DNA from: a virus
Lineage: Duplodnaviria > Heunggongvirae > Uroviricota > Caudoviricetes
DNA length: 43,395 nucleotides
Virus record (IMG/VR): IMGVR_UViG_3300028832_002797
Reading direction: 5' to 3' (one strand)
Position numbers and translations under genes: made by a program. The notes beneath the pieces are model-generated. The model was not told the DNA's origin. It saw only the letters and a program-made list of their open reading frames with translations, and did not search any database. Shown here piece after piece: positions 5,308 to 21,410 of this stretch. How positions within the stretch are numbered: position 1 is the first letter of the stretch; each line of letters starts with the position of its first letter.

Positions 5308-5589
5308 ATGAACATTTTACTGCTCAATAAAAAATATGGTTATGAAACGGTAATTCCTTTTCCATTAGTTTCTCCATTAAGAATGTGGGAAGAAACTGCA
5401 CTTGTATTTAATGGCGGTAAAAAGAATTATAGTTTATGGAAGTCAGATTTTGAAGATACTGACATGATATTGCCAAATAATACAAAATTAGTTCTTACGA
5501 ATTTTAAAAACGTAAAGGAGCTATATGATTATATAGCTCCGATTCTAAACAATGAAGAAAACAAATTCGTAATAGAAAACTATCTTTAA
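5308..5589 (+). CDS. Array paralog (degenerate)
   Basis: Ends ...LNNEENKFVIENYL. Confidence 0.7.
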   Translation: MNILLLNKKYGYETVIPFPLVSPLRMWEETALVFNGGKKNYSLWKSDFEDTDMILPNNTKLVLTNFKNVKELYDYIAPILNNEENKFVIENYL

Positions 5590-5999
5590 AGGTCGTCAAT
5601 CTTTCCAAGAGTTTTCGCAAATTCCAAATAACTTAGTACATTTTCACGAAGTCCAGCCAATTCACCATTAAACGAGATTTCAGTAGCTCCATGTTTTAAT
5701 ACAATATTTTTATAATCGTTCAGCCGCTGCTCATTTATCATAAGTACACAAAAATCGGTAGTCAAATAATAGCGATTATTCAGATGAATAATTTCACGTC
5801 CGCTTATACGTACATCTTCTCCATCAGCATAATATGATTTCTTATCAACTGCTAAAACCTGTAAAAGCGAAGGTTCTTTATTATCCTTGTAGTTATACTG
5901 GATATAAAAAACCTCGGGCAATACTTTCGTAATATCATAAGCGGTTTTTCCGTTAATAACCGCCCGTTTGATTTGATTATTTGCTTTAATTCTTTTCAT
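5586..5999 (-). CDS. Array-like small protein (inverted orientation)
   Basis: Start revised to MKRIKAN (ATG 5999) to avoid overlap with the upstream gene; ends ...KTLGKIDDL. Confidence 0.6.
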   Translation of the reverse strand: MKRIKANNQIKRAVINGKTAYDITKVLPEVFYIQYNYKDNKEPSLLQVLAVDKKSYYADGEDVRISGREIIHLNNRYYLTTDFCVLMINEQRLNDYKNIVLKHGATEISFNGELAGLRENVLSYLEFAKTLGKIDDL

Positions 6000-6021
6000 T
6001 TTGCTGAATAATATAATCGGT

Positions 6022-6306
6022 TCAGAGTTTTTCGATTGCCCTAAGATTCCTGTATTTTTCAATAGCCGTAGAGAGACGGTCGAGGTTTTTCCTGTCGGCG
6101 TAAAGATTCTCATATTTAGTACCTTCGAGCATTACATAATCACCTGGACGCTGAGTAATATAATACCAATAGCCACCAGCATAATCGTTAGGCTCTACAA
6201 CTTGTATTCCAATTTGTCCATTCTGTGTACTAAAATCCAAAATATCGACAAACTCGATATTTTTCTTTGCCGTAGCACTCAGACTTACACACAGTTTATT
6301 CTTCAT
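6022..6306 (-). CDS. Array paralog (inverted orientation)
   Basis: Start revised to ATG 6306, 7 nt after the minus-strand -10 box; ends YVMLEGTKY...RNLRAIEKL. Confidence 0.75.
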   Translation of the reverse strand: MKNKLCVSLSATAKKNIEFVDILDFSTQNGQIGIQVVEPNDYAGGYWYYITQRPGDYVMLEGTKYENLYADRKNLDRLSTAIEKYRNLRAIEKL

Positions 6307-6313
6307 GCCATAG

Positions 6314-6342
6314 AATATAGTAAACCAGCTGTTATTTGTAAA
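6314..6342 (-). promoter_or_regulatory. Sigma70-type promoter TTTACA-N17-TATATT
   Basis: -35 at 6337-6342 and -10 at 6314-6319; ATG 7 nt downstream. Confidence 0.75.
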
Positions 6343-6346
6343 CCTG

Positions 6347-6375
6347 TTTACATAAAGAAAATTTTTTGCTATATT
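6347..6375 (+). promoter_or_regulatory. Sigma70-type promoter TTTACA-N17-TATATT
   Basis: -35 at 6347-6352 and -10 at 6370-6375; ATG at 6383. Confidence 0.75.
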
Positions 6376-6382
6376 ATAAGGC

Positions 6383-6724
6383 ATGAAGTCTAAGCCCAAA
6401 ATTCTTTTTCGTCATTTTACTGTCCAGCCAGAAGAATTCGACATTGACAGGTTTGAAGTATTTGAGCTTAGGGATAATGTTAATATCTGCGACGGTAATC
6501 CTTCATTAGCAGTTCCATTGGCTCCGTATGGTCATTATAAAAATCGAACTGAAATAGTTCCCATATCGCATTTTATATATCCAGACTGTTATTTCATAAT
6601 AGACGATGTAGAATATCGTTTTCCTAATAAAAAACCACAAGAGATATATAAAACACTTTGCGATGTAATTTATGAAAAGATTGTAGAATATCAACTTTCG
6701 AGCTTGAATGATGATAGCGTTTAA
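6383..6724 (+). CDS. Array paralog (degenerate)
   Basis: Contains CYFIIDDVEYRF; promoter directly upstream. Confidence 0.75.
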   Translation: MKSKPKILFRHFTVQPEEFDIDRFEVFELRDNVNICDGNPSLAVPLAPYGHYKNRTEIVPISHFIYPDCYFIIDDVEYRFPNKKPQEIYKTLCDVIYEKIVEYQLSSLNDDSV

Positions 6725-7043
6725 ATATACAGAGTTATATAAAACACTTTTGGATAAGCAAATTCCAATTAAATACATGAACATCAAAGATGAAGTTCAT
6801 GCTTATTCTCATTTATATAAAGGTCATACGTCTGTTCTGTTTTGCGGAATGAAGAAATGGGATGAAGACGATTTTACCATTTATTACTACATGAGAAATA
6901 ATGTTACAGAAGATTTGAGACTTAGCTGGGACAATAACTGCTATGTAGTTTATGAAGGCGTCAGGTATGACAATATTGATAAGCTTTACGCTTCGCTAGA
7001 AAATAAAAAGACTCTTGCAATAATAGATAGCTATTTACAATAA
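6708..7043 (+). CDS. Array paralog (degenerate)
   Basis: Ends YVVYEGVRYDNI...KKTLAIIDSYLQ. Confidence 0.75.
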   Translation: MMIAFKYTELYKTLLDKQIPIKYMNIKDEVHAYSHLYKGHTSVLFCGMKKWDEDDFTIYYYMRNNVTEDLRLSWDNNCYVVYEGVRYDNIDKLYASLENKKTLAIIDSYLQ

Positions 7044-7120: not shown

Positions 7121-7136
7121 TATATTATTTATAGCG

Positions 7137-7165
7137 TTGACAAAAAGGAACTCTCTTGCTATATT
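7137..7165 (+). promoter_or_regulatory. Sigma70-type promoter TTGACA-N17-TATATT
   Basis: Consensus -35 and 17-nt spacer; ATG at 7175. Confidence 0.8.
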
Positions 7166-7174: not shown

Positions 7175-7444
7175 ATGTCTCAAAAAACACAAAATATCAT
7201 ATTTTATTGCTGTATGTTAATGGCCATAGCTGGTGCAGCTTGGATTGTTCAAGCGGTTTACCAACAATCACCAAATATCGATTATGAAAAAAGCTACAGT
7301 GTAGCAGAAGTTCAGAAGTTGGTAGATGAAAAAGTTAAAGATGTCAGCTGCGGTGTCATCAATAACGAAATTATCTGCATCCATAAAAACCACAAAACTT
7401 CGCGTCAACCTGTCTTTTGTACAGTTAAATGGAACGGTAAATAA
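7175..7444 (+). CDS. Small protein with an N-terminal membrane anchor/signal
   Basis: Hydrophobic stretch IIFYCCMLMAIAGAAWIVQAV; lacks the array motif. Confidence 0.7.
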   Translation: MSQKTQNIIFYCCMLMAIAGAAWIVQAVYQQSPNIDYEKSYSVAEVQKLVDEKVKDVSCGVINNEIICIHKNHKTSRQPVFCTVKWNGK

Positions 7445-7737
7445 TGTCACCAGTACCCTTCAAACTCACATGTACGATTTTGGTAATTTATATTGCCTTG
7501 TTCGTAATTCTCGGATTCTTCAGTCTGTCTATCTTACTCTGGCTTCTAGGCATAATGTTCGCCGTGGCAACATTGTGTTATATTGTCATTCTTATCGAAG
7601 AAAAGCCATGGAAGTATTGTAATTCGGCGGAAAACTGGCTTGGATATGCACTCATGGCATACGGTATTGTTTTCTTCTTCCTTCCGATTATTTTACTCAA
7701 TATTATTGCCGACAAGATGGAACGTAATGAAAAATGA
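7444..7737 (+). CDS. Small integral membrane protein (about 3 TM segments)
   Basis: Three hydrophobic stretches; TAATG overlap upstream and ATGA overlap downstream. Confidence 0.75.
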   Translation: MSPVPFKLTCTILVIYIALFVILGFFSLSILLWLLGIMFAVATLCYIVILIEEKPWKYCNSAENWLGYALMAYGIVFFFLPIILLNIIADKMERNEK

Positions 7738-8072
7738 TTAACGTCGTTTTTACACAGTATAATTGTGATGAACATCCGGTCAAAAGGGCTGTTACTGAAG
7801 TAGTCGCATTTTATAAGTGTAAAGCCGAAAATTTTGTAGATTCACATGACCAAAAAGATATTATAGATGAATCGATAATTGTTATACAATGGAAATCTCC
7901 GGATTATCATGGCATTTATATGCTTCGTCTTGGTACTTTTAATCTTTATGAGGCGTATCTTGAAATCGATGGTAAAATATACAAATATCCGGAAATAATA
8001 AAAAACTTTGACAGAATAAACGGTATTATAGAAAACGAAAAAACCAAACTCGCTTTGGAGAAACTGGCATGA
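7734..8072 (+). CDS. Array paralog
   Basis: Ends YLEIDGKIYKYPEIIKNFDRINGIIENEKTKLALEKLA. Confidence 0.85.
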   Translation: MINVVFTQYNCDEHPVKRAVTEVVAFYKCKAENFVDSHDQKDIIDESIIVIQWKSPDYHGIYMLRLGTFNLYEAYLEIDGKIYKYPEIIKNFDRINGIIENEKTKLALEKLA

Positions 8073-8353
8073 TTCAAATCAGACACCGTTCTTGCTTATA
8101 TGACATCGAAACAATAGATAATTTTGTGCATTTGTTGCATTATAATTCTGATCTTGAAACACATGAGCATTATATAAAAGTATGCATTAAACCTGTTGGT
8201 TGGAATTATTCTCACGAGGTTCGTTTAAACGGTGATGATTATATTAAGCTAAATGACAAAATTTATACTGTAACAGATATTGGTGAACAATTTGACAAAG
8301 TTAAAGCATTAGTCATGCACGAACTTGAAATTCAGGCTATAGACGCATTATGA
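8069..8353 (+). CDS. Array paralog
   Basis: Ends YIKLNDKIY...IQAIDAL; ATGA overlap. Confidence 0.85.
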   Translation: MIQIRHRSCLYDIETIDNFVHLLHYNSDLETHEHYIKVCIKPVGWNYSHEVRLNGDDYIKLNDKIYTVTDIGEQFDKVKALVMHELEIQAIDAL

Positions 8354-8643
8354 GCAATATTGTAATTGAAAGACGATACAGTTATCCCAGGTCGGATGAC
8401 ATTTACAATGTATATAAGTTATATGGTTTTGAAGAGACAAAAAGAGGTTTTTATATTTTCTTTACCGATAAGAGAGATGGTTATCCACACACCATCGATA
8501 CGGCTCCTACCGAAAAATCTAAGACGTTTCTTATAATTAACGGACAAAGATTTACAAACGATGACATTCTTAAAAATCCTTCCAGAATCGGTGCATTATT
8601 GAATAATGCATGGAATATGAACGCAATAGAACACCTTCCGTAG
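8350..8643 (+). CDS. Array paralog
   Basis: Ends FLIINGQRF...ILKNP...NAIEHLP. Confidence 0.85.
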   Translation: MSNIVIERRYSYPRSDDIYNVYKLYGFEETKRGFYIFFTDKRDGYPHTIDTAPTEKSKTFLIINGQRFTNDDILKNPSRIGALLNNAWNMNAIEHLP

Positions 8644-8652
8644 ATTACCAAT

Positions 8653-9042
8653 ATGACAAAAGACGATTTTAAAGTTTTTCAAGATTATCATATAGATTAC
8701 ATTCTAAGAGATAAGCATCAGCCTTATATCTTTAGGGAAATGTATATCAATGAAAACAATGTTACAGAACCGGATCTTTTGATTCCTATTGTTAGCCCAG
8801 AGACTTATACACAAACTATAGAATGTCTTGTATTTAGGTCAAATGAAAACAAAACTTATATGTACAGAGGTTATCTTTATATAAACCCGAAAGGCGAAAA
8901 TGTAAAGAAAATGACCTTATATTCCAGAAACGGAAAAGAAGTCGCATTTGACCCAAAGATAGATGACGCTTCTATATTTACTGAAAAAGTTAAGATGTAT
9001 GTAGATAACTATGATAATTTCAGAAGTATTGACAAGCTATGA
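8653..9042 (+). CDS. Array paralog (divergent)
   Basis: Ends ...NFRSIDKL; ATGA overlap downstream. Confidence 0.75.
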   Translation: MTKDDFKVFQDYHIDYILRDKHQPYIFREMYINENNVTEPDLLIPIVSPETYTQTIECLVFRSNENKTYMYRGYLYINPKGENVKKMTLYSRNGKEVAFDPKIDDASIFTEKVKMYVDNYDNFRSIDKL

Positions 9043-9413
9043 CAAAAGTAATCTGTGAAAAATATAAAGACGGAAATTTACTCTATACGAATGAATATAT
9101 CGTTGGAGAGTTAAATTTTATTTACGAATGTAGTCCAAACACAGCTTATGAAGCCATGCAATCTGATTTACGTAATCATAAAACAGTACGTATGTGTTTT
9201 ATCGCAAAGTCGTTAAATAATAAAAAAATAAGCATGGAATACTATAAGTATATTGGTTCGTTTCCGATATATAACTTTGGTCCTTTGGATGAACGAACAT
9301 ATCTCGTTATTGGCGATAAGACCTTTTACTATTCCGATGTTGTTGATAATACCGAAAAGATAGTTGCCTTGATTAAACAGGAAGAAACCCTTTCAGCCAT
9401 CGAGGAGTTATGA
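9039..9413 (+). CDS. Array paralog
   Basis: Ends YLVIGDKTFYY...LIKQEETLSAIEEL. Confidence 0.85.
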   Translation: MTKVICEKYKDGNLLYTNEYIVGELNFIYECSPNTAYEAMQSDLRNHKTVRMCFIAKSLNNKKISMEYYKYIGSFPIYNFGPLDERTYLVIGDKTFYYSDVVDNTEKIVALIKQEETLSAIEEL

Positions 9414-9763
9414 TTAAAGTAATTATTACAATAGGTGGAAATATCGTTGTTGAATATGTTGTAACTGAACTTATCAGTGTAATTATAGATTTTGTTAGAG
9501 CTACCCGAATTACACAAAGTCAGACTGATGGTATAGGTAACAACGTTTTGTATATAGAATTCAACTATAAAAGTAAGAATAGCCGTGAAAACTATGGTAA
9601 CATAACTTTACCTTTCGGACACTTTGCCGAGAAAGACCAAGAAGTCTATTTAACTGATGGCCACAAAAATTATTATTATAAAGACATTATGGAAAATCCC
9701 GAAAAGTTCAAAGCCATAATAACCAATAAACTTATGGTTGAAACCATCGATAGCGTATTATGA
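9410..9763 (+). CDS. Array paralog
   Basis: Ends YYYKDIMENPEKFKAII...ETIDSVL. Confidence 0.85.
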   Translation: MIKVIITIGGNIVVEYVVTELISVIIDFVRATRITQSQTDGIGNNVLYIEFNYKSKNSRENYGNITLPFGHFAEKDQEVYLTDGHKNYYYKDIMENPEKFKAIITNKLMVETIDSVL

Positions 9764-10029
9764 CCGTTATATTAAAGCTTAATAAAAAAATTCACAGAAA
9801 AGACTACAAAATAACGAAAATTATTAAGTTTTTTGCAGCCGGTATACATTCGTATATTCATTTTATTGATGATGCCGGAAAAGATTTACAGTTCAATTTT
9901 GATGTATATTGTAGTATTGAAGTCGATGGTATAAAACACGATTATATTGAATATAGGGAAAATCCTGCAAAGTTCGCAGCCATGATTGAGAATATTCAAA
10001 ATATATTTGTATTAGAGGCCTTACCGTGA
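9760..10029 (+). CDS. Array paralog
   Basis: Ends SIEVDGIKHDY...ENPAKF...VLEALP. Confidence 0.85.
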   Translation: MTVILKLNKKIHRKDYKITKIIKFFAAGIHSYIHFIDDAGKDLQFNFDVYCSIEVDGIKHDYIEYRENPAKFAAMIENIQNIFVLEALP

Positions 10030-10361
10030 TTCTTGTACATGATCTTGATTGCCCGACTCGTGTTCTTAGAGTAAAGAAAATTTTAACCTTTACTGTTTTT
10101 GAAAATCCGGTACCTTATCCAATTAATGAACTTTCAGAACCGCCGACAATGGTTGTAAATTTTGAATTTGTTGGAAATGCTGATACATATTATGACGCTA
10201 CGTATTATTTTTCAATGAGCGAAGATTCTGTAAAAAATCTTTTTATGATTACTATAAATGGCAGAACGTTTGAACTGAAAGATATTATAGAAAATCGAGA
10301 ACTGGTAATATCACTTATTGAACATGAAAAAGACCTTCAGGAAATTGAGGCTTTACCATGA
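10026..10361 (+). CDS. Array paralog (GTG start)
   Basis: GTGA overlap; ends ITINGRTF...EIEALP. Confidence 0.85.
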   Translation: MILVHDLDCPTRVLRVKKILTFTVFENPVPYPINELSEPPTMVVNFEFVGNADTYYDATYYFSMSEDSVKNLFMITINGRTFELKDIIENRELVISLIEHEKDLQEIEALP

Positions 10362-10654
10362 TATTGTATCTTTTACAGAATAAACATCACTATGGTACCA
10401 AGGTAGAGTTTACTCATTTGAGCAGCATTGAAACACTCAATTTCCACGGCGATGATTTTACGGTTATTACTCTTGTCGATAAATACGGAAAAACTCATAG
10501 ACTGCCTATCGGAAAAGAATCGGTAATCAGGGTTGATTCCGGTCCTATTGATTTACCAGCAGAATATGAATTTAGAGAGATGACTGAAAACCCGGATGCA
10601 TTCGTAGCAATGATTAATAACATAGAAAATGAAATTGCTCTCGACCGTCTTTAA
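10358..10654 (+). CDS. Array paralog
   Basis: Ends ...ENPDAFVAMINNIENEIALDRL. Confidence 0.85.
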   Translation: MILYLLQNKHHYGTKVEFTHLSSIETLNFHGDDFTVITLVDKYGKTHRLPIGKESVIRVDSGPIDLPAEYEFREMTENPDAFVAMINNIENEIALDRL

Positions 10655-10679
10655 CCCGTTGACAAACGGGTTATTTTTT
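10652..10679 (+). terminator. Terminator hairpin overlapping a -35 box
   Basis: AACCCGTT-GACA-AACGGGTT followed by ATTTTTT. Confidence 0.6.
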
Positions 10680-10687
10680 ACTATATT
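10659..10687 (+). promoter_or_regulatory. Sigma70-type promoter TTGACA-N17-TATATT
   Basis: ATG at 10695, 7 nt after the -10 box. Confidence 0.8.
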
Positions 10688-10694
10688 AAGATTG

Positions 10695-11015
10695 ATGATT
10701 CGGATTATTCAAGAAGAGAATATACATGGGAATTGGACTCAGCGTCGTCAGTTCAAAGTAAAATCAGCAAAGCTGGTCACACAAACTGTACGTAGCACAT
10801 ATGATACCGATCTTATTGTTCAGTTTGAATCCTACAATAACAGTCGTCGAGATACCTATGGATTTGAATCTGCTGAAACATGCTTACAATATAGGTTGTT
10901 AATAGAAATAGGCGGAGAAGTCTATGGACGTAAAGAACTTATTGAAAATGTCGATAAATTCAACGCCATGCTAGAAAACGAGTCAGTAAAATGCGCCATT
11001 GAGAGATTGTCATGA
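10695..11015 (+). CDS. Array paralog
   Basis: Start revised to MIRIIQEE; ends LIEIGGEVY...CAIERLS. Confidence 0.85.
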   Translation: MIRIIQEENIHGNWTQRRQFKVKSAKLVTQTVRSTYDTDLIVQFESYNNSRRDTYGFESAETCLQYRLLIEIGGEVYGRKELIENVDKFNAMLENESVKCAIERLS

Positions 11016-11335
11016 TTAGAGTTAAGTGTTATCATAAATCTAGTATTAATGGGCGTTGGGAACAAATCAGAGCTTATCCAGTATATCAGCCTGTACTTAA
11101 ATATAGTGAACTTAGTAAAGATTATTTAACAATCACTTATGTAGATTTTTATAAAAATCCAAATAGTTTAATGTTGTTCGATAGAGAAGACATTCGTATG
11201 CAAGTAGCTCTGGATATTGACGAATTAAATATTCATAAAGAATATACTATAGAGGAATTAAAAACTGATTTTGACAGAGTTAGTGCGTTATTTGATAATG
11301 AATATATGAAAGATATTTTGGAAGCCTTACCATGA
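11012..11335 (+). CDS. Array paralog
   Basis: Ends ...DFDRVSALFDNEYMKDILEALP. Confidence 0.85.
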   Translation: MIRVKCYHKSSINGRWEQIRAYPVYQPVLKYSELSKDYLTITYVDFYKNPNSLMLFDREDIRMQVALDIDELNIHKEYTIEELKTDFDRVSALFDNEYMKDILEALP

Positions 11336-11673
11336 TTAAACTTGTACGTGAAGCATATTATAAAGATGGACAGCACTCGACGCGAATTTATTATTTACTC
11401 GAATCGTATGTTTTTCAAACTGTGACCAATAGGCACAAATATCTTTGTATAGCATTTACATATTTTAAATCAGAACTTGATGATGACTATAAGGAAAAAC
11501 CGGACTATTGTTTTTTGGGTAATGTGTCTAATCCTAGCGGCAACAGCTATAATACTTGGATTGAAATCGACAATGTAAAATATACAGATAAAGACATTGA
11601 AAAGAATATGGAAAAGTTCAATACTCTCTTAACACAGAAAACAAACGAAGAAGTTTTGAATAGATTGGACTGA
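11332..11673 (+). CDS. Array paralog
   Basis: Ends WIEIDNVKY...EVLNRLD. Confidence 0.85.
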   Translation: MIKLVREAYYKDGQHSTRIYYLLESYVFQTVTNRHKYLCIAFTYFKSELDDDYKEKPDYCFLGNVSNPSGNSYNTWIEIDNVKYTDKDIEKNMEKFNTLLTQKTNEEVLNRLD

Positions 11674-11674
11674 T

Positions 11675-11956
11675 ATGGTTATAGTTAAGATAGTTGAACC
11701 TAACATGAATACCAAATATTTGGAAGCAACTAATGTTAGATTAGATGCCGTTACTAAAGCTGACATTTATCTTCATTATAGAATTCCAGATTATCTTGGT
11801 GAACAGGCTATTTACTTAACCTTAAATACCAAAGATGTTTCTTTGATTATAAACAATGTTGAATATCTTCACAATACGCTTATAAACGATTATGATAAAA
11901 TTAACGCTCTATTGGAAGAACAACGGATAGAAGAAGCTATCGACTCTTTACCTTAA
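11675..11956 (+). CDS. Array paralog
   Basis: Ends LIINNVEY...EEAIDSLP. Confidence 0.85.
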   Translation: MVIVKIVEPNMNTKYLEATNVRLDAVTKADIYLHYRIPDYLGEQAIYLTLNTKDVSLIINNVEYLHNTLINDYDKINALLEEQRIEEAIDSLP

Positions 11957-11963
11957 TTCTCGG

Positions 11964-11992
11964 TTGACAAATGTTTCATACTTTGCTATATT
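11964..11992 (+). promoter_or_regulatory. Sigma70-type promoter TTGACA-N17-TATATT
   Basis: ATG at 11999, 6 nt after the -10 box. Confidence 0.8.
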
Positions 11993-11998
11993 GTGTAT

Positions 11999-12358
11999 AT
12001 GAGCAAGGTTATTCTTTATAATGTCTTTAAAATTATGAATAATAGCATTGTAGGCAGTGTAGATTACAAATGGACTCCAAAATACGAAGTAAAGAACGCA
12101 AAACTTGTACTGTACGAGAATAACGGTTATTATATAGAGTACGAAAAATACAAACTAATAGGTGATAATAATTCATTTAATCAGTTATCAACACCCAGAT
12201 ATTTTAGACTTGGGGATGTATATGGTACTAATATGGTAGGCGCAGTCGAAGTCGATGGTGAAATGTATAATATTAATCGTATTGCGGAAAATCCGGAAGC
12301 CTTCTCAGCAAAATTAGAAAACCTAGAACTTGAAGATTGCATAGACCAACTACCATGA
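11999..12358 (+). CDS. Array paralog
   Basis: Ends VEVDGEMY...ENPEAF...DCIDQLP. Confidence 0.85.
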   Translation: MSKVILYNVFKIMNNSIVGSVDYKWTPKYEVKNAKLVLYENNGYYIEYEKYKLIGDNNSFNQLSTPRYFRLGDVYGTNMVGAVEVDGEMYNINRIAENPEAFSAKLENLELEDCIDQLP

Positions 12359-12696
12359 TTAAATTATTGTTTAAAGATTATACTGTTAATAGCGGTTATA
12401 ATGATTTGCCTATTATAAATCTCAAGGTGGAACTTGAGAGAAATATACCGAATGATTTTTTCCAGCTAAATCAAAAAGAGAGAACTGCTGTTTTGGCGAC
12501 ATTCAATTTTATTGGTGAGTCAGCACGTCAGGCTAGAAATATAGGTCGTTTCCGATATAATTCTTTTGACTATGAAAATTTTATCCAAATCGGTGAAACC
12601 ATTTATAACTATGAAGCACTTCTGGAAAATATAGACAGAATAAGCGCAATTATTGAAAAAGAAAACTTGAAGAATTCCATTGAGGCATTACCATGA
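12355..12696 (+). CDS. Array paralog
   Basis: Start revised to the ATGA overlap (MIKLLF); ends FIQIGETIY...NSIEALP. Confidence 0.85.
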   Translation: MIKLLFKDYTVNSGYNDLPIINLKVELERNIPNDFFQLNQKERTAVLATFNFIGESARQARNIGRFRYNSFDYENFIQIGETIYNYEALLENIDRISAIIEKENLKNSIEALP

Positions 12697-13850: not shown

Positions 13851-13882
13851 AAACTGACACACAAAACTACGGAGTAAACTTT

Positions 13883-14149: not shown

Positions 14150-14164
14150 CGTGCATTTATATGG

Positions 14165-14193
14165 TTGACATCGGCCCTATATTTTGCTATATT
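14165..14193 (+). promoter_or_regulatory. Sigma70-type promoter TTGACA-N17-TATATT
   Basis: ATG at 14201, 7 nt after the -10 box. Confidence 0.8.
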
Positions 14194-14200
14194 GCATAGC

Positions 14201-14551
14201 ATGGTAGAAGTTATCCATAAAGTTAAATATAATTACGGTAAAACCGAATTTTCTTCGAATATTCTTACCGAACTTCGTTTTTTGATAGTTCATGAGGATA
14301 GTTTATCAGCATACATAGTAAATCCCACACCCGAAAAACATTATGTTGATATTGGATTTTCTACTAAGAACGGTTTAATAAATTTAGCCATTGGTAAGTT
14401 CGATATTACAGGTGTCAAATCATGGGAAGTCTATGTTCTCATTGACGGTGTTAAATACGAATATGAATATATAGCCTACAACCCTGAACGTTTTAAGGCT
14501 TTGGTAAACCAGTCGTTGTTAACTTCCATGCTGGAGAAAAACTTATGCTAG
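14201..14551 (+). CDS. Array paralog
   Basis: Start revised to MVEVIH; ends VLIDGVKYEY...NPERFKALV...MLEKNLC. Confidence 0.85.
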   Translation: MVEVIHKVKYNYGKTEFSSNILTELRFLIVHEDSLSAYIVNPTPEKHYVDIGFSTKNGLINLAIGKFDITGVKSWEVYVLIDGVKYEYEYIAYNPERFKALVNQSLLTSMLEKNLC

Positions 14552-14865
14552 AAGTATGGCAAGCAACATATAATTTCGGATATTTAAAATATCCGCTGGC
14601 TAAGCTTATCGACTTGGAACCCGATGACGATTACGGTATTACAGATACTGGCAAATGTCTGTTAAGACAGCGTTTTCGTATAAGGTTCTATGATAATCTG
14701 GATAAAAAACATACGATCCATTTTGATGGAGTCCGTCAGCAAGAAAACATTATCGTAAATGGCAGAAAGAAATACGACTATTTCTCTATAAAGAAAGATC
14801 CTATCAAATTCAGACTGTTTCTGGAACAGGAAATTACACGCTCTGCAATCGAGGCACTTCCATGA
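14545..14865 (+). CDS. Array paralog
   Basis: Ends IIVNGRKKY...SAIEALP. Confidence 0.85.
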   Translation: MLEVWQATYNFGYLKYPLAKLIDLEPDDDYGITDTGKCLLRQRFRIRFYDNLDKKHTIHFDGVRQQENIIVNGRKKYDYFSIKKDPIKFRLFLEQEITRSAIEALP

Positions 14866-15167
14866 TTAAAGTTATCGACGGATTTGGACTTAAACATCAA
14901 GTAGCAAGTGGCTCATTACACAAGATGTATTCTATATACAACACAAATGAAGTAGTTGGCTACAAATTCGTATATGTTGTGGAAGGTCGAGCGATACGAC
15001 AAGAATGCCTCTTCAATACAAAAACTTGGGCACACGAGTTTCAAAATGCCATCGATATTAACGGTAAGGTTTTTCATTACGAAGACATCGATAAGAACTA
15101 CGGAAGTATTAAGGTCATGATTGAACAGGATTTTATGGCCAGTATGATTGATAGGAATTTGCCATGA
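14862..15167 (+). CDS. Array paralog
   Basis: Ends IDINGKVFHYEDI...MIDRNLP. Confidence 0.85.
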   Translation: MIKVIDGFGLKHQVASGSLHKMYSIYNTNEVVGYKFVYVVEGRAIRQECLFNTKTWAHEFQNAIDINGKVFHYEDIDKNYGSIKVMIEQDFMASMIDRNLP

Positions 15168-15472
15168 TTAATATTTGTAGAAATGGAATAATTGAAACCG
15201 TACAGCCAATGACGCTCGTCGTGACCACGACACGTTATGAAAAAGGCTTGGTATTAAAGTGCAGGCCTTCTTATACATTGTATTATCGTAACAAGGATAA
15301 TCTTATAAGGTATATAGACTTTTCAGTATATGACAAAAATGCTCGAAAAGAGAATTATCTGGAAATAAAAAATATAAGGTACAAATATCCAGGCATTAAT
15401 AGAAATCCTGAAAAAATCAGAATGCTTATTGAAGAAGATCGGCTCAACGATTCTATTGAGGCTTTACCATGA
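15164..15472 (+). CDS. Array paralog
   Basis: Ends YLEIKNIRYKY...DSIEALP. Confidence 0.85.
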   Translation: MINICRNGIIETVQPMTLVVTTTRYEKGLVLKCRPSYTLYYRNKDNLIRYIDFSVYDKNARKENYLEIKNIRYKYPGINRNPEKIRMLIEEDRLNDSIEALP

Positions 15473-16245
15473 CAAAGTTTAGACCTTGCATAGACATACA
15501 TGACGGTTGTGTTAAGCAAATCGTCGGTAGTTCCCTAGGTTCAAATTTAGTAACAAATTTCGAATCAGACCGTTCTCCGGCCTGGTTCGCTGAACTGTAT
15601 AAGAAAGACGGAATTACTGGTGGTCATGTTATCATGCTCGGTAAAGAAAATCCCGAACTTGCAAAAGAAGCGTTGAGAGCATATCCTGGCGGACTTCAAG
15701 TCGGCGGCGGAATAACTTCCAAGAACGCACAGGAATATCTGGATGCTGGCGCTTCGCATGTTATCGTTACCAGTTGGGTTTTCCCTGACGGTAAACTGAA
15801 CATAGACAGACTCGAAACCCTTTCGAGAATTGTTGGCAAGGAACATCTCGTACTCGATTTGAGCTGCAAGAGAATAACGGAACCTGAAGATATTCCCGCA
15901 TGGAAAGTCGCAATCAATCACTGGCAGACACTTTCAGATACAGAAGTATTACCGGAAACACTTGAGCTTCTTTCTGATTACTGTTCTGAGTTTCTTATAC
16001 ATGCAGCGGATTACGAAGGTAAGCAAAACGGCATGGATGAAGAACTTATAATGCTCATGGCCGAATATAGTCCGATTCAATGTACCTATGCGGGAGGTGC
16101 AAAGTCTATTAAGGACCTAGAACGCTGCCAGAGGCTCTCAAACGGAGCCGTGGACCTCTCTATCGGTTCAGCCCTAGACTTATTTGGGGGCAAGGGAATT
16201 AAGTACACAGAGTGTGTTCGGTTCAATAAAGGAGCAGGGCGATGA
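15469..16245 (+). CDS. hisA: ProFAR isomerase, His6/eukaryotic-type HisA
   Basis: Motifs MTKFRPCIDIHDGCVKQIVG, LQVGGGI, VIVTSW, LDLSC, FLIHAADYEG, YAGGAKS and IGSALDLFGG match the yeast His6-type family. Confidence 0.93.
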   Translation: MTKFRPCIDIHDGCVKQIVGSSLGSNLVTNFESDRSPAWFAELYKKDGITGGHVIMLGKENPELAKEALRAYPGGLQVGGGITSKNAQEYLDAGASHVIVTSWVFPDGKLNIDRLETLSRIVGKEHLVLDLSCKRITEPEDIPAWKVAINHWQTLSDTEVLPETLELLSDYCSEFLIHAADYEGKQNGMDEELIMLMAEYSPIQCTYAGGAKSIKDLERCQRLSNGAVDLSIGSALDLFGGKGIKYTECVRFNKGAGR

Positions 16246-16544
16246 TTAAAGTATTTAATTCAAAGAAGCTCTACACTTTAAGTAATCCGGAATTCCACAT
16301 AGTTAAGCAGGACTATCTGGATACGAAAAATTATTTTGAATTTTACAGAATTGCATTCTATTATGACTGTATGCAAGTATTAGTCGATTTTTCTGACCGT
16401 TCTTCGATTGAAGAGTTTATCAACTATGTCGAAGTGAACGGGAAAATTTTTAAGTATAAAGATATTCATAAAAATCCGGAAAGATTTAGAATGTTATTGG
16501 AGCAGGACAAACTTATTGATACTATTGATAGGAACTTGCCATGA
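16242..16544 (+). CDS. Array paralog
   Basis: Ends YVEVNGKIFKYKDIHKNPERF...TIDRNLP. Confidence 0.85.
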   Translation: MIKVFNSKKLYTLSNPEFHIVKQDYLDTKNYFEFYRIAFYYDCMQVLVDFSDRSSIEEFINYVEVNGKIFKYKDIHKNPERFRMLLEQDKLIDTIDRNLP

Positions 16545-16834
16545 TTCAGGTTTATTTGTCTGCACTCAATAATTTTATCCCGGTAAGAAATCCGGAGTTA
16601 TGTAAAGCAATAGATAGTTTTACCAATAGCGAATATTTTCGTTTAACTGCCATTGACCCAACCGGACGTAAGTTTTATATCGATTTTTCCCCGTCATTAT
16701 GGAATAATGACAACTTCATCGATATTGATGGTAAAAAATTTAGATATTGTGAGATTGAAAAGAATCCCGATTACGTTATTGCGTTAGTGGAACAAGAAGC
16801 GAACCGTTGTGCAATAGAAGATCTTTCAGGTTAA
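16541..16834 (+). CDS. Array paralog
   Basis: Ends FIDIDGKKFRY...CAIEDLSG. Confidence 0.85.
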   Translation: MIQVYLSALNNFIPVRNPELCKAIDSFTNSEYFRLTAIDPTGRKFYIDFSPSLWNNDNFIDIDGKKFRYCEIEKNPDYVIALVEQEANRCAIEDLSG

Positions 16835-16859
16835 CATTTGACTTAAATTAATTTATATT
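16831..16859 (+). promoter_or_regulatory. Sigma70-type promoter TTAACA-N17-TATATT
   Basis: The -35 box contains the upstream TAA stop; ATG at 16870. Confidence 0.65.
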
Positions 16860-16869
16860 TAGAGGTACT

Positions 16870-17196
16870 ATGATTACATTATATGACCATGAAGACAATA
16901 AACTGTATGAAGTCAAGAAACTTACTGGTTTTTTGATTGACGATGACTTTTTCGCTAGACTCGCGGATGGCGATAGACAATGTGTAACAAAAAATTATGA
17001 AGAAATAATTTTGGATTTTGTTGACCAGTACAATAAGGAACGAAAGTTCTATATAACCGATTCCAACAAAGATAGAGTTACTATCAAAATAGATGATGTC
17101 GAATATTCCTATGATTATATCACGAAGAACCAAGATTGGGCAAATTCCGTATTTAACCATCAAATGGGTCTTATAGCAGTTGAGCAACTTCCATGA
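16870..17196 (+). CDS. Array paralog
   Basis: Ends IKIDDVEYSY...IAVEQLP. Confidence 0.85.
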   Translation: MITLYDHEDNKLYEVKKLTGFLIDDDFFARLADGDRQCVTKNYEEIILDFVDQYNKERKFYITDSNKDRVTIKIDDVEYSYDYITKNQDWANSVFNHQMGLIAVEQLP

Positions 17197-17480
17197 TTAA
17201 CGCATACAATGCCTGTCTTGATAAATTACATAAAGATATAAAACAACCGAAACTTGAAAGTTTCCCAGTTGATAATTATGCGGAACCTATCAGCTTTGCT
17301 ATTTATTTCGATGAGGACAAAGAACATAAGACTTTGGTTTTTTCGGGTAAGCGTTCACAAAATTATCTGGAAATAAATGGAAATAAATACTGGTATACAG
17401 ATATGTTGACCCGTTGGGACCTTATACAAGCGCTTATTGTCCAAGAAAACAACATAAAAGCTATCGATGCCCTTCCATAA
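17193..17480 (+). CDS. Array paralog
   Basis: Ends YLEINGNKYWY...KAIDALP. Confidence 0.85.
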   Translation: MINAYNACLDKLHKDIKQPKLESFPVDNYAEPISFAIYFDEDKEHKTLVFSGKRSQNYLEINGNKYWYTDMLTRWDLIQALIVQENNIKAIDALP

Positions 17481-17484
17481 AGGG

Positions 17485-17513
17485 CTGACATATACACCCC
17501 AATTTACTATATT
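17485..17513 (+). promoter_or_regulatory. Sigma70-type promoter CTGACA-N17-TATATT
   Basis: ATG at 17521, 7 nt after the -10 box. Confidence 0.7.
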
Positions 17514-17520
17514 GGGGTAT

Positions 17521-17805
17521 ATGGTAAAGTTTATTCAATATAACAAACTACACGATGAATATATCACATGGCCTTCTAATTATGTAGAATTGGCCGGACA
17601 CAACAATTCCGGCGAAATTCTCGTTGACGTTTATTATGGTGATAAACATACCTACCAGAAAGACCGTTTCATTTTGAAACCTAAGTGCTATTTTGAAATT
17701 GATGGAAAGAAGTATACCAGTTCCTACGTAAAAGCCCACGAACAAGAAATGAAAATTTTTCTCAAACAGGTCCGAGAAGCCTCTGTACTCAATATCCTAG
17801 ACTAA
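17521..17805 (+). CDS. Array paralog
   Basis: Start revised to MVKFIQ; ends YFEIDGKKY...VLNILD. Confidence 0.85.
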   Translation: MVKFIQYNKLHDEYITWPSNYVELAGHNNSGEILVDVYYGDKHTYQKDRFILKPKCYFEIDGKKYTSSYVKAHEQEMKIFLKQVREASVLNILD

Positions 17806-17806
17806 C

Positions 17807-18085
17807 ATGATTCGTTTCAGATATACAAATTGGGAAGGCGTAGTTACGGAATATACGCTGAAAGAACCGGTAATAGGGCATAATCATTATGACGATTTGT
17901 CTCTATATTGCTATGCTGAAGATACTATGGGATATACACGACATGCCTGGTTGATAGATTCGACTTCTGAACTTTTTATTAATGATAAGAAATATGATGG
18001 GGACTATATTCTGGAAAACTGGAAAGAAATTAACATTCTGATAAAACAATCCGAAGAAATCGAATGCTTAGAGGTACTTGACTGA
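17807..18085 (+). CDS. Array paralog
   Basis: Ends LFINDKKY...ECLEVLD. Confidence 0.85.
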   Translation: MIRFRYTNWEGVVTEYTLKEPVIGHNHYDDLSLYCYAEDTMGYTRHAWLIDSTSELFINDKKYDGDYILENWKEINILIKQSEEIECLEVLD

Positions 18086-18375
18086 TGATTAAAGTTTATG
18101 ACCATAGATGTGGAACACTGTGTGAGGTTAGGAGCTGTTCTCTTGTAAAAGCCGGCGAATGTTTTGACTTAACCTATTCTTACTGGGTAAGTCCGAAGAA
18201 TTTCCAGGTTAAACATCTTACGTTTTCGCCTTACATTTACGAGGAACGAAACTCTAATTATATCGAAATAAACGACATTAAGTACAAATACGATAATATC
18301 CGTAAAAGATTCGGACTTATCCAAGCCCTTATCGAAAAAGAAAGTATCATATCTGCAATAGAGGAACTTCCATGA
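18085..18375 (+). CDS. Array paralog
   Basis: Ends YIEINDIKYKY...SAIEELP. Confidence 0.85.
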   Translation: MIKVYDHRCGTLCEVRSCSLVKAGECFDLTYSYWVSPKNFQVKHLTFSPYIYEERNSNYIEINDIKYKYDNIRKRFGLIQALIEKESIISAIEELP

Positions 18376-18644
18376 TTAAGTATACTTTCAAACGTATTTC
18401 TGACAATAAATTTCAAACTATCGAGATTTGTAATGCCTTAAAATTAGCACAATATAATGGCAGTGTTTTTATTACGATTTCTGAAACTAGCTTTCTTCAA
18501 TTCGACAAATATGACGATGATGGGAGTTTCCTTGACATTGGCGGGAAAATCTATACGAAAGACCAAATTATGGAAAATCCAGAAAAAGTCTTCGTAGCCA
18601 TGAAAAATGACATTCTCAGTACCGAAATCGAGGCCCTTCCATGA
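18372..18644 (+). CDS. Array paralog
   Basis: Ends FLDIGGKIY...ENPEKV...EIEALP. Confidence 0.85.
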   Translation: MIKYTFKRISDNKFQTIEICNALKLAQYNGSVFITISETSFLQFDKYDDDGSFLDIGGKIYTKDQIMENPEKVFVAMKNDILSTEIEALP

Positions 18645-18964
18645 TTAAAGCATACAACTCCCAAACGCTTACACATTATGACAAAATCATAGAGGCAAAG
18701 CTGTACCCAAATCCCAAATACAAAAATGACAAGTTTGATACCTATACCTATATAGACCAGTTTACCCTGGAATTCAAGACAGACATTAACGAAAGGTCCG
18801 ATTTTATTAATTTTTCCAAATATAGTATGGGCGAATGCTATATCAGCAATATCGTAATCAACGATAAAGAATATACCTACATGGAAATCCGTAAGGAATA
18901 CGAACACCTCCAGGCCCTTATCGAAAGGGAAATAAACCTGACCAATATTGCCCTCCTACCCTAA
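18641..18964 (+). CDS. Array paralog
   Basis: Ends IVINDKEYTY...ALIERE...NIALLP. Confidence 0.85.
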   Translation: MIKAYNSQTLTHYDKIIEAKLYPNPKYKNDKFDTYTYIDQFTLEFKTDINERSDFINFSKYSMGECYISNIVINDKEYTYMEIRKEYEHLQALIEREINLTNIALLP

Positions 18965-18970
18965 AAAGGG

Positions 18971-18999
18971 CTTACATACCCCCTTAAATTTGCTATATT
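18971..18999 (+). promoter_or_regulatory. Sigma70-type promoter CTTACA-N17-TATATT
   Basis: ATG at 19006, 6 nt after the -10 box. Confidence 0.7.
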
Positions 19000-19005
19000 A
19001 GGGGT

Positions 19006-19290
19006 ATGGTCTTCCTTAAAACTATAACTTCATTTGATCATCCGTTCATGGACGTAATCAAGGATATTGTCAATATAGCCTATTCGCCATATTCTTTTAG
19101 ATTAGATTACAAAAATGCTGCGGGACATCAAATCCGGTCCACCTTCACCAAGGGTATGGACCCTGAAACACATAATATAAGGATAAATGACGATACCTTT
19201 TCCCCTAAGGAAATGGTAGATAACCCTGAAAAGATGGCAGCTTTGATAAGACAGGATTTGACAAATTCGGCAATAGAGGCCCTTCCATGA
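19006..19290 (+). CDS. Array paralog
   Basis: Ends IRINDDTF...DNPEKM...SAIEALP. Confidence 0.85.
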   Translation: MVFLKTITSFDHPFMDVIKDIVNIAYSPYSFRLDYKNAAGHQIRSTFTKGMDPETHNIRINDDTFSPKEMVDNPEKMAALIRQDLTNSAIEALP

Positions 19291-19574
19291 TTACCATAAT
19301 ATATGACAAAAAGAAAAACATTAAAGAGAATGTTCTGGAACCGGTCAAATTCGTCGAGGATGCCGTATATCTGAATTTATTCTATCATAAGCTTAACTAC
19401 CAGCAACGTGAAATTTCAGATTATATAGGTTTTAACAAGTATACTAAAAACGGCTATCTTCTAAAAATAGGAGATAAAGTATTTAAACCTGCGCAAATCA
19501 TAGAAAATCCAGAACATATCCTGGCCCTGATGAAACAAGACTTCTTAAAACAAGCCCTCGAGGAACTTCCATGA
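19287..19574 (+). CDS. Array paralog
   Basis: Ends LKIGDKVF...ENPEH...QALEELP. Confidence 0.85.
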   Translation: MITIIYDKKKNIKENVLEPVKFVEDAVYLNLFYHKLNYQQREISDYIGFNKYTKNGYLLKIGDKVFKPAQIIENPEHILALMKQDFLKQALEELP

Positions 19575-19900
19575 TTACATTCCATAATTCCGGTTATTCT
19601 TTTCGGATGTACGGGAAGCATATGGACTCGCCCGCCCTTATCTATGCCAAGGGTACTATTTTTGTCCCGTATTTTGATAAGTCAGATCCTATCGGCTGTC
19701 TCGCGATGTACCAAATGTTTAGTAGCATATTCTATACAGGCTATTACATATATTCGAATGAACCCGAAAACTATCTGCAAATAACCAACAAGGAGATTGA
19801 CCAGAAGTTTTACTATGAGGATATTGTCAAAGACATAGACAAGCTGAACATCCTAATCGAAAAGGAAAAGCTCGGAGATGCCATCGAGGAACTGCCATGA
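19571..19900 (+). CDS. Array paralog
   Basis: Ends ...FYYEDIVKDIDKL...DAIEELP. Confidence 0.85.
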   Translation: MITFHNSGYSFRMYGKHMDSPALIYAKGTIFVPYFDKSDPIGCLAMYQMFSSIFYTGYYIYSNEPENYLQITNKEIDQKFYYEDIVKDIDKLNILIEKEKLGDAIEELP

Positions 19901-20178
19901 TTTCAGTATTTAACGGATTTACATATATTAAACACGCGAATATCATCGTTTCGTATTTTATTCGATATAGGGACGGTTTTAAGTTGACCTATACCATCCC
20001 CGGACGCTCTGAACATTTTGCCCAGTATTTCGAAAGCACAGACCCCTATGACAGCGTGTCCTATATGACGATAAACGGGAAGAAATACGACAGCGACAAC
20101 ATGGAAAAGAACTTTGACAGAATCCAAACGCTCTTAACCCAGGAAAGCAATTTAAGAGCAATCGAGGCCCTCCCATGA
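19897..20178 (+). CDS. Array paralog
   Basis: Ends YMTINGKKY...RAIEALP. Confidence 0.85.
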   Translation: MISVFNGFTYIKHANIIVSYFIRYRDGFKLTYTIPGRSEHFAQYFESTDPYDSVSYMTINGKKYDSDNMEKNFDRIQTLLTQESNLRAIEALP

Positions 20179-20459
20179 TTAAATTCATCCAGCAAAGCTC
20201 TATCATCCGTTCCGAAACGACGGTAAAGGACGTCTACGGCTACAGGTCCATGTACAACGGCGTCTATTTCTATTACCATACCCAACACGACAACGAGGCC
20301 TGGGAACTCTTCTCGAACACCCCCGCACACGACAACCATTTTATCCAGATAGGAAATAATGCCTACCAGGCCAAAGATATAATAAAAAATCCAGAACGTA
20401 TCTTCGCCCTCATGCAGCAGGATTCAATCGACGAAGCACTCGATAAACTTCCGGGTTGA
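20175..20459 (+). CDS. Array paralog
   Basis: Ends FIQIGNNAY...KNPER...EALDKLPG. Confidence 0.85.
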   Translation: MIKFIQQSSIIRSETTVKDVYGYRSMYNGVYFYYHTQHDNEAWELFSNTPAHDNHFIQIGNNAYQAKDIIKNPERIFALMQQDSIDEALDKLPG

Positions 20460-20484
20460 CATATACCCTACATTTTACTATATT
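20456..20484 (+). promoter_or_regulatory. Sigma70-type promoter TTGACA-N17-TATATT
   Basis: The -35 box contains the upstream TGA stop; ATG at 20492. Confidence 0.8.
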
Positions 20485-20491
20485 ATTGACC

Positions 20492-20815
20492 ATGATGATA
20501 CTTCTCCTCACGGTCTTTATATCCTATGCCCTCTACCTCGGTTTCAAGGACGTCATGAAATTAAAGAAAGACGCCTTCATGATGGCCATGCAGGATCTCC
20601 CCTATACCCGCCCAGAAATCAAGAAAAGCCTCTTCGAATACCTGGAAGTAGCAAACCTTAACTCCCTCAGGCAGGAAAGGAAACAACTCTTGTTCCCCGG
20701 AAACCTCTGGGAACAAGGCTACAGGACAGCAAACCAGGTCATAGACGACCTCCCCAGGCTCATAGCCCGCGAACGCAATATCGAAACCGAATATATCATC
20801 GAGAAACTTCCATGA
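20492..20815 (+). CDS. Membrane-anchored protein with an array-type C-terminal tail
   Basis: N-terminal TM segment MMILLLTVFISYALYLGF; ends YIIEKLP with an ATGA overlap. Confidence 0.8.
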   Translation: MMILLLTVFISYALYLGFKDVMKLKKDAFMMAMQDLPYTRPEIKKSLFEYLEVANLNSLRQERKQLLFPGNLWEQGYRTANQVIDDLPRLIARERNIETEYIIEKLP

Positions 20816-21108
20816 TTCATGTATATAACGGTAAACTATATACCAATGTTGTAAATCCAAAGCTGGAATATGTTACAGATAGTATCTTCCCACCTTATAA
20901 TCCATATTACTGGATAACTTTCTGGGAAGGCCCTAAAGCACAATTTACGAGGGTAGACTTCCGAGATTTCTCCGAGGAAATAAATAACAATTATATCGAA
21001 ATCAATCACCAGCAATTCAAATATAAAGATATAAAAGAAAACCTGGAATATATCCAGGCCCTAATCGAAAACGATGTTAACCAGGAAGCTATCGAGACCC
21101 TCCCATGA
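20812..21108 (+). CDS. Array paralog
   Basis: Ends YIEINHQQFKY...EAIETLP. Confidence 0.85.
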   Translation: MIHVYNGKLYTNVVNPKLEYVTDSIFPPYNPYYWITFWEGPKAQFTRVDFRDFSEEINNNYIEINHQQFKYKDIKENLEYIQALIENDVNQEAIETLP

Positions 21109-21410
21109 TTACCATGGACTACATATCCTCCAACAATAAACCGCAATCTATTAACGTTATAGACCTACATTCCCTATATCATAAAAAAGCCCTGTTCAGG
21201 GACGGTTCCGACTGTGTAATCTTTGGTATTAAAAGCGACCATAACTATAACATCCTATATACCAATTCGAAATTCTATCCCGAAAATACCCAGTATATAC
21301 ATATCAATAAGACAGTATTCAATATCAAAGAAATCATGGAAAACCCGGATAGAATATACTCTTTAATGCAACAAGAACTATTAAGAGATTCTATAGACAA
21401 TTTACCCTAA
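21105..21410 (+). CDS. Array paralog (last member)
   Basis: Ends YIHINKTVF...ENPDR...DSIDNLP. Confidence 0.85.
   Translation: MITMDYISSNNKPQSINVIDLHSLYHKKALFRDGSDCVIFGIKSDHNYNILYTNSKFYPENTQYIHINKTVFNIKEIMENPDRIYSLMQQELLRDSIDNLP

Follow-up and report, generated by a model that had tools for sequence, protein, structure and literature searches.

What are the dozens of small genes that lie head to tail on one strand of a giant phage genome, and what might their products do? Giant phages carry large blocks of genes that cannot be named, and one such block occupies the + strand of positions 5308-21410 in the IMG/VR virus record IMGVR_UViG_3300028832_002797 (43,395 nucleotides (nt); this whole stretch is referred to as the window). 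Its source is a distant T4-related phage from an uncultured clade with relatives of 291-431 kb. An original prediction, made by reading the DNA, described the block as about 45 paralogs, most of them with a hypervariable N-terminal part and a constant C-terminal module that could dock onto a common partner or drive hetero-oligomerisation. We arrive at a different description, which we hold with slightly better than even confidence: the genes form an old, lineage-specific family with one predicted fold and cassette turnover, and the products would act early in infection as cytoplasmic binders of different host or competitor targets.

An undescribed family of small paralogs

The + strand of 5308-21410 is a chain of 47 open reading frames (ORFs), nearly without gaps. 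Thirty-eight of these are family members, all located within 7734-21410 (13.7 kb), and the same 38 were retrieved with a profile of the last 48 amino acids (aa) and with an iterated full-length profile (member E values of 1e-10 to 2e-23 at Z = 10,000). Together with a single member on the - strand, this gives 39 demonstrable members and up to five doubtful ones. The predicted family and its nearly gapless chain are real, but the profile searches lower the count of about 45 and place the start of the array proper at 7734. The members are 82-124 aa long and have no signal peptide and no membrane segment.

Under four-fold cross-validation, all 38 members obtained a higher score for their C-terminal 45 aa than any shuffled decoy, confirming the constant C-terminus, and the N-terminal parts (37-79 aa) exceeded the 99th percentile of the decoys in only 7/38 (median 3.5 bits vs. 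1.4). The N-terminus had been called unalignable, which holds at the level of individual residues but not for its hydrophobic strand skeleton. In 135 unique sequences from at least five genomes, this skeleton comprises the start M-I-x-[VIL]-[YIV] (columns 2, 4, and 5), followed by columns 16, 22, 40/42/44, and 54/57. Polar helix positions are also conserved in this set (N87, 67%; E/D89, 78%; Q/N97, 74%; E/D98, 71%; E/D105, 92%). The majority of the conserved positions are residues of the hydrophobic-core type, a beta-turn, and an N-P-E helix cap, and no profile column contains a conserved Cys or His. Most members carry a negative or neutral net charge (median -3), and their isoelectric points (pI) range from 4.5 to 9.3. 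On account of this spread in pI, we rejected a uniform acidic DNA-mimic character.

No recurrent family match was obtained in Pfam, PHROG, NCBIfam, PADLOC, or the PDB sequences. The original prediction did not recognise the family, and no characterised Pfam family matches it. When 91 members were analysed with hidden Markov models (HMMs) by hmmscan at E <= 1, no PH or bPH family was among the 25 families listed and no listed family matched more than five members. The PHROG matches were five different single-member chance matches, and the profile search of the PDB sequences gave chance-level rows only (best E value 0.05). Among 1.84 billion representative proteins, the profile retrieved only 95 clusters (50% identity), none of them named and all derived from metagenome assemblies. 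About half of these clusters are orthologues of window members at 66-98% identity, and the remainder are 25-57% identical. The matches span the full length of the proteins, and no longer or fused forms of the family were found in this large database, which is weak evidence. A feature search of the ESM Atlas with two members gave no usable match, and neither megablast of the array nor tblastn of one member found a match in 50,697 phage records. Judged by these searches, the protein family is undescribed.

Predicted fold

AlphaFold2 models were obtained for member 7734-8072 (38-row alignment; predicted local distance difference test (pLDDT) 83, predicted template modelling score (pTM) 0.72) and for member 9039-9413, which has the longest N-terminal part (91-row alignment; pLDDT 76, pTM 0.67). 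According to DSSP, both models have seven antiparallel strands, followed first by a short helix and then by a C-terminal helix of 20 residues capping the sheet, in the same order despite the different lengths of their N-terminal parts; the extra length of 9039-9413 is accommodated in two low-confidence loops. The "constant module" corresponds in these models to strands 6 and 7, their N/D-G turn, and the short and long capping helices. Members are thus modelled as a single small domain and not as two modules, and with the profile matches running from end to end, this speaks against a variable domain joined to a constant docking tail. The strand skeleton of the N-terminal part and both models indicate one fold, which runs counter to the original modular description.

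The predicted topology is weakly PH-like. The VIA-align lists for both models are dominated by PH, PTB, FERM-F3, and Tfb1-type PH domains, but with Z scores not above 4.6. The best alignments were to 1h10_A (Z 4.6, root-mean-square deviation 4.0, 80 aligned) and 1zc4_B (Z 3.8), a range that the tool terms a common arrangement. An Atlas cluster of bPH_4 bacterial PH proteins reached a TM score of 0.51, and Foldseek searches against PDB, BFVD, and the AFDB clusters returned nothing at E <= 0.001.

Age, selection, and turnover of the array

The array was compared with those of L001, a close relative on a Logan contig with ~94% nucleotide identity to the window; G002, a 411-kb relative (with the loci L020 and L021); and L026, a third relative represented by a 129-kb contig. 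The nearest paralogs within the window share only 21-46% identity, and a tree (99 columns, few supported deep branches) contains at least 17 sister pairs of window and L026 members with very long terminal branches. This dates the duplications before the divergence of the known relatives, and the low identity between nearest paralogs led us to reject a recent burst of duplication.

The array content varies between relatives, as had been predicted. L001 shares 37 reciprocal-best orthologues with the window (72-100% identity) and differs by two additional in-register cassettes and one replaced member or cassette, with the junction sequence as flanks. L026 has at least 30 members and a hisA-type gene that also interrupts the window array. 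In the left block of the array (7734-13850), colinear reciprocal-best orthologues are present for 12 members in G002 and 13 in L026, at 26-58% identity. The right block (14201-21410) has orthologues in L001 and L026, and reciprocal-best matches in G002 for 17193-17480, 19897-20178, and 20812-21108 only. G002 and L026 are ~96% identical to each other in the left block and 93% identical in the last two members, yet L026 5584-12259 (6.7 kb, ~20 genes including hisA) is missing from G002, with breakpoints at gene junctions. The copy number of the family differs two-fold among relatives with the same core genes.

Flanking genes of the window and L026 are 90-94% identical (dS 0.63), and the colinear family orthologues share 27-57% identity at saturated dS (1.6-2.8). 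An exception is member 20812-21108, which is 85% identical to its L026 and G002 orthologues (dS ~0.15 vs. L026). With dS differing in this way between the flanks, the array, and 20812-21108, the locus is a mosaic of segments with different coalescence times. Member 20812-21108 may have been exchanged recently or may have a special role. Its family-profile score is also one of the top scores, and seven other ORFs in the chain have it as their nearest paralog.

Ratios of nonsynonymous to synonymous substitution rates (dN/dS) were calculated as concatenated pairwise Nei-Gojobori estimates, taking the C-terminal 45 codons as the C-terminal part. Between the window and L001, dN/dS was 0.33 for the N-terminal part (2108 codons) and 0.17 for the C-terminal part at dS 0.12-0.16, compared to a value of 0.06 in six flanking replication genes (dS 0.13). 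The long-term values obtained with L026 (~0.39 for the N-terminal part, 952 codons, and ~0.15 for the C-terminal part) match these short-term estimates. Four single genes exceed a dN/dS of 1, on very few substitutions. By these estimates, each paralog appears to be under purifying selection, relaxed 3- to 5-fold relative to the neighbouring replication genes. The diversifying selection implied by the original prediction is not seen as a blanket feature of either half, with dN/dS per region below 1 in both.

Gene junctions

ATGA overlaps, which had already been noted in the array, follow 24 of the 38 members; the other junctions range from -26 to +42 nt, with promoters contained in the longer gaps. 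The C-terminal tail of a member differs according to what comes after it. Glutamate is found four residues before the stop in 17/24 members with an ATGA overlap vs. 2/14 without an overlapping next gene (p = 0.002), and GAGG or a similar Shine-Dalgarno word occurs in the last codons of 16/24 vs. 2/14 (p = 0.0025). A final proline (CCA, giving the A of ATG) ends 18/24 members with the overlap and 5/14 without it (p = 0.04). Because of the overlap, the second codon also has to begin with A, and 87% of the members start with Met-Ile.

As E-x-L-P-stop is tied to an overlapping downstream gene, the tail is partly a signal at the nucleotide or RNA level, which combines a GAGG ribosome site with an ATGA start, and not purely the protein module that had been described. 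The leucine and a nearby acidic residue persist in members without a downstream gene, which points to a constraint at the protein level as well. The non-member ORF 20492-20815 ends in a family-like tail (I-I-E-K-L-P), which would fit a role of the tail in translation of the next gene; in this ORF and in 5308-5589, 6383-6724, and 8653-9042, likeness to the family is confined to the final few residues.

Genes within operons are predicted from this arrangement to be translationally coupled via the ATGA overlaps. The same ~20-nt junction is present on both flanks of each extra cassette in L001, and the junction appears to provide microhomology for the in-register gain and loss of cassettes.

Promoters and likely timing of expression

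The array is organised, as far as its sequence can tell, into about nine short operons with near-consensus sigma-70-type promoters and almost no leader. The nine + strand promoters agree with TTGACA-17-TATATT in 9-11 of 12 positions, an extended TG is often present, and the -10 boxes end 6-10 nt ahead of the ATG. The leftmost (6347-6375, TTTACA-17-TATATT) has its ATG 7 nt beyond the -10 box and is followed by 7137-7165 (TTGACA-17-TATATT with TG). At 10652-10687, a terminator-like hairpin (10652-10673) and a promoter (10659-10687) are merged, with the -35 TTGACA in the loop, then a T-run and the -10 TATATT. The promoter at 14165-14193, which marks the start of the right block, is built in the same manner, with TTGACA in the loop or arm of a terminator-like hairpin (14163-14193), a T-run, and the -10 box. 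Further promoters are located at 11964-11992 (TTGACA-17-TATATT), 16831-16859 (TTAACA-17-TATATT), 17485-17513 (CTGACA-17-TATATT), and 20456-20484 (TTGACA-17-TATATT, ahead of 20492-20815), and an extended -10 box, TGCTATATT, lies at 18991-18999, 6 nt ahead of the ATG of 19006-19290. Within 6314-6375, near-identical promoters stand back to back, the one at 6342-6314 serving the - strand member 6022-6306 and the other driving 6383-6724 on the + strand, so that the two genes are transcribed apart. Six ORF starts (10695, 11999, 12355, 14201, 17521, and 20492) were moved downstream because the longest ORF ran through the promoter.

The same type of promoter precedes the replication genes on the other strand. 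The late-type promoter TATAAATA was not found on the + strand of 7734-21410 and is present before the tail-tube gene and its neighbours. We infer that these features point to early or middle transcription of the array.

Proposed function and alternative explanations

In the reading that we favour, the array proteins would be made early in infection and would constitute a repertoire of binders. Their variable sheet and loop surfaces would each engage a different host or competing-element target in the service of takeover or counter-defence, and the conserved half would mainly form the core of the fold. An effector or binder repertoire had already been proposed, and with an early-type sigma-70 promoter region it is still the most reasonable function, but not in its two-module form. 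Several observations weigh against this reading. The gene-wide dN/dS values below 1 are not the arms-race signature expected of counter-defence genes, and the members are heterogeneous in pI. The PH-like resemblance of the models is weak (best Z 4.6, TM 0.51) and would be uninformative on function or ligand. As the phage encodes a sigma-70-family factor of its own (34435-35262), the promoters could be middle and not immediate-early. Finally, the conserved polar helix positions (N87, E/D89, Q/N97, E/D98, and E/D105), which we treat as structural, may be a shared functional surface. A bolder version, which we consider decidedly unlikely, builds on this last point: about 40 binders on one predicted PH-like scaffold would each be directed against a different host defence or housekeeping protein, and the polar helix stripe would deliver all of them to a shared hub such as a protease, RNA polymerase, or a phage factor. 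If such a library existed, a single locus, reshuffled in register at coding junctions, would set host range and counter-defence for a giant gut or rumen phage clade.

Two-part adaptors, in which a variable part binds the target and a constant C-terminal module docks on one partner or hetero-oligomerises, are somewhat easier to accept than this library but still unlikely. Their case draws on the conservation of the C-terminal 45 aa in 38/38 members and on a 174-aa protein of G002 (L021 1033-1557, ~190.5 kb into the contig), which is encoded distant from the array, combines the C-terminal half of the family with a longer, unrelated N-terminal part, and has an orthologue in the 291-kb relative L016. 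AlphaFold2, however, places the module inside a single domain, as strands 6 and 7 and the capping helices, and most of the conserved positions are those expected of a hydrophobic core, a beta-turn, and the N-P-E helix cap. The ribosome site and start codon needed by the next gene account in part for the extreme tail, and the search of the large database for longer or fused forms, which found none, adds weak evidence against adaptors. The adaptor reading retains some weight because several polar helix positions are conserved across the 135 sequences from at least five genomes. Less probable than either of these is that the paralogs are immunity-type or exclusion proteins, each neutralising a different toxin (an abortive-infection or toxin-antitoxin effector or the weapon of a rival phage), comparable to the immunity arrays of polymorphic toxin systems. 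Small, cytoplasmic, single-domain proteins, each conserved and encoded in tandem with cassette turnover, would suit this role, and the structural searches returned a toxin-immunity protein (9v8i_A, Z 3.2) and an Imm32 Atlas cluster (TM 0.34), both at noise level. Set against this, no immunity family gave a sequence match or a convincing structural one, and no toxin genes lie beside the array in the window.

We regard as very doubtful that the proteins regulate, or act as accessory factors in, the transcription, replication, or DNA organisation of the phage itself. The location of the array next to the replication module and the non-coding region 21411-21956 would fit such a role, for which the zinc-ribbon copies expanded in phage G are a precedent (PMC7824862). 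The proteins show no nucleic-acid-binding motif and no conserved Cys or His, however, their net charge is mostly negative or neutral (median -3), and relatives sharing the core genes differ two-fold in copy number. Functionless filler, that is, duplicated ORFs tolerated in a hyperplastic region thanks to spare capsid capacity, is disfavoured as highly improbable. It has been proposed that jumbo-phage genomes can grow by tandem duplication (PMC5646251), and whole blocks of the array are dispensable in relatives. Filler is nonetheless hard to reconcile with open frames, colinear orthologues, and dN/dS of 0.15-0.39 even at saturated dS. Hardly credible, finally, are virion-packaged internal proteins with a shared capsid-targeting signal. 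The loci of T4-type internal proteins offer an analogy, being polymorphic and combining a constant segment with a variable remainder, and the window phage is related to T4. Here, the constant part is C-terminal and lies within the predicted fold, and the + strand of the array has early-type promoters and no late TATAAATA promoter. An old family of early-expressed, single-domain binders thus remains the reading that we prefer.

Array layout and genomic neighbourhood

The left block (7734-13850, + strand; G+C content ~30-33%; iterated HMM E values 1e-10 to 8e-18) comprises 18 members: 7734-8072, 8069-8353, 8350-8643, 9039-9413, 9410-9763, 9760-10029, 10026-10361, 10358-10654, 10695-11015, 11012-11335, 11332-11673, 11675-11956, 11999-12358, 12355-12696, 12693-12941, 12941-13309, 13306-13575, and 13572-13850. 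The right block (14201-21410, + strand; G+C content ~36-39%; E values 8e-13 to 2e-23) comprises the remaining 20: 14201-14551, 14545-14865, 14862-15167, 15164-15472, 16242-16544, 16541-16834, 16870-17196, 17193-17480, 17521-17805, 17807-18085, 18085-18375, 18372-18644, 18641-18964, 19006-19290, 19287-19574, 19571-19900, 19897-20178, 20175-20459, 20812-21108, and 21105-21410. Over 14201-20459, the G+C content exceeds that of the left block by 5-6%. Precisely at the border between the AT-richer left and the GC-richer right block lies an unrelated, Cys-containing ORF of 88 aa (13883-14149, +; HMM E > 1000), which is missing in the 94%-identical L001, where the alignment jumps from 13852 to 14163.

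Left of the array proper, the divergently transcribed member at 6022-6306 (-) encodes 94 aa from an in-frame ATG after its own promoter (HMM E 2e-6), and its reciprocal best match is 17019-17339 in locus L020 of G002 (41% identity). The two ORFs that follow on the + strand are doubtful, degenerate relatives with orthologues in G002. ORF 6383-6724 (HMM E 10, not significant) is 53% identical to its orthologue, and the borderline 6708-7043 (E 0.033) is 60% identical. The first ORF of the chain (5308-5589, +; HMM E 4.7; G002 orthologue 76% identical) is no demonstrable member and is preceded by TATAAATA at 5296-5303. Neither 7175-7444 nor 7444-7737 (both +; HMM E 98 and > 1000) belongs to the family, and the latter has a hydrophobic, membrane-like C-terminal segment. 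Within the array, the + strand ORF 8653-9042 has no significant relationship to the family (HMM E 63; G002 orthologue 36% identical), and the ORF at 20492-20815 (+; 107 aa, HMM E 160) has an N-terminal hydrophobic, membrane-like segment and only the tail in common with the members.

The hisA-type gene (His_biosynth; 15469-16245, +; PF00977, E 1.4e-28) is joined to its neighbours by ATGA overlaps on both sides. It occupies the same position in L001 and L026 and is absent from G002 with the surrounding 6.7-kb block. Compared to L026, it is 79% identical, with dN 0.13 at saturated dS (2.7), indicating strong purifying selection. Its best bacterial match in a pattern-limited scan was a metagenome-assembled genome of a rumen Lachnospiraceae (46% identity), which is only a hint at a Lachnospiraceae or rumen host for the phage.

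To the right of the array and beyond the non-coding region, the - strand carries the replication module, with genes for clamp-loader subunits, a sliding-clamp-like gene, a PD-(D/E)XK nuclease, a primase-like gene, a DHH protein, gp32, a DnaB-type helicase, the sigma-70-family factor, a thymidylate-synthase homologue, and Mre11/Rad50-like genes. To the left are - strand genes, including that of the tail-tube protein, with TATAAATA boxes in front. The gp32 protein is at most 30% identical to that of any of the 50,697 deposited phages, but 84% identical in the two IMG/VR contigs of 291 kb (L016) and 411 kb (G002, rated 98% complete). At least 15 small genes in tandem (L022 112-5173) also occur in a phage lineage that is more distant, where they lie beside an unsplit family B DNA polymerase of 1075 aa. 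The family profile matches three of these genes, yet they have another tail (..L-K-E-I-T-E).

Comparison with known systems

The jumbo phages G and 121Q contain tandem arrays of more than 30 similar genes, which were interpreted as tandem duplications (Hua et al. 2017, PMC5646251). For Bacillus phage G, ~35 zinc-ribbon copies have been described as a lineage-specific expansion without precedent (Iyer et al. 2021, PMC7824862). The window array resembles these in having more than 30 head-to-tail copies of one small protein in a jumbo phage, here 38 on the + strand within 13.7 kb. The contigs of its gp32-sharing relatives, at 291 and 411 kb, lie above the 200 kb that define a jumbo genome. The array differs in its protein family, which lacks the conserved Cys and His of a zinc ribbon, and in belonging to a different, uncultured phage clade. 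Moreover, the copies in phages G and 121Q are very similar, whereas nearest paralogs in the window share 21-46% identity. With the PH-like superfold (PH, PTB, FERM-F3, Tfb1, and FACT PH domains and bPH_4), the family has the predicted seven strands and C-terminal capping helix in common, but it has neither a Pfam PH or bPH match nor a Foldseek match at E <= 0.001.

The MGF360/505 genes of African swine fever virus and the ankyrin/F-box genes of poxviruses are tandem, anciently diverged paralogs in variable genome regions, and their copy number varies by the gain and loss of blocks. Tandem old paralogs with block gain and loss are likewise found in the window, but there is no homology, and the window proteins are much smaller and single-domain by prediction. 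The array may also be analogous to the promoter-early stem-loop (PeSL) cassettes in the hyperplastic early regions of T4-type phages, as an early-type promoter is fused to the preceding terminator hairpin at 10652-10687 and small genes are exchanged as cassettes. In contrast to PeSL cassettes, most cassette borders here are coding ATGA junctions, and all cassettes belong to one family.

What sets the array apart is the age of its copies, the triple use of the junction, and a naturally polymorphic 6.7-kb block. Its orthologues, which are colinear in at least four relatives, the natural 6.7-kb deletion, and a junction that would unite protein tail, ribosome site, start codon, and microhomology make it suitable material for future studies. 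If individual members turn out to inhibit specific targets, the family would supply new proteins for anti-defence or host takeover, built on a compact scaffold. By its sequence, the family is new and its layout, the jumbo-phage tandem paralog array, is of a kind already known. Finding this layout again with an unrelated, undescribed family in an uncultured clade suggests that such arrays are a recurrent strategy of jumbo phages.

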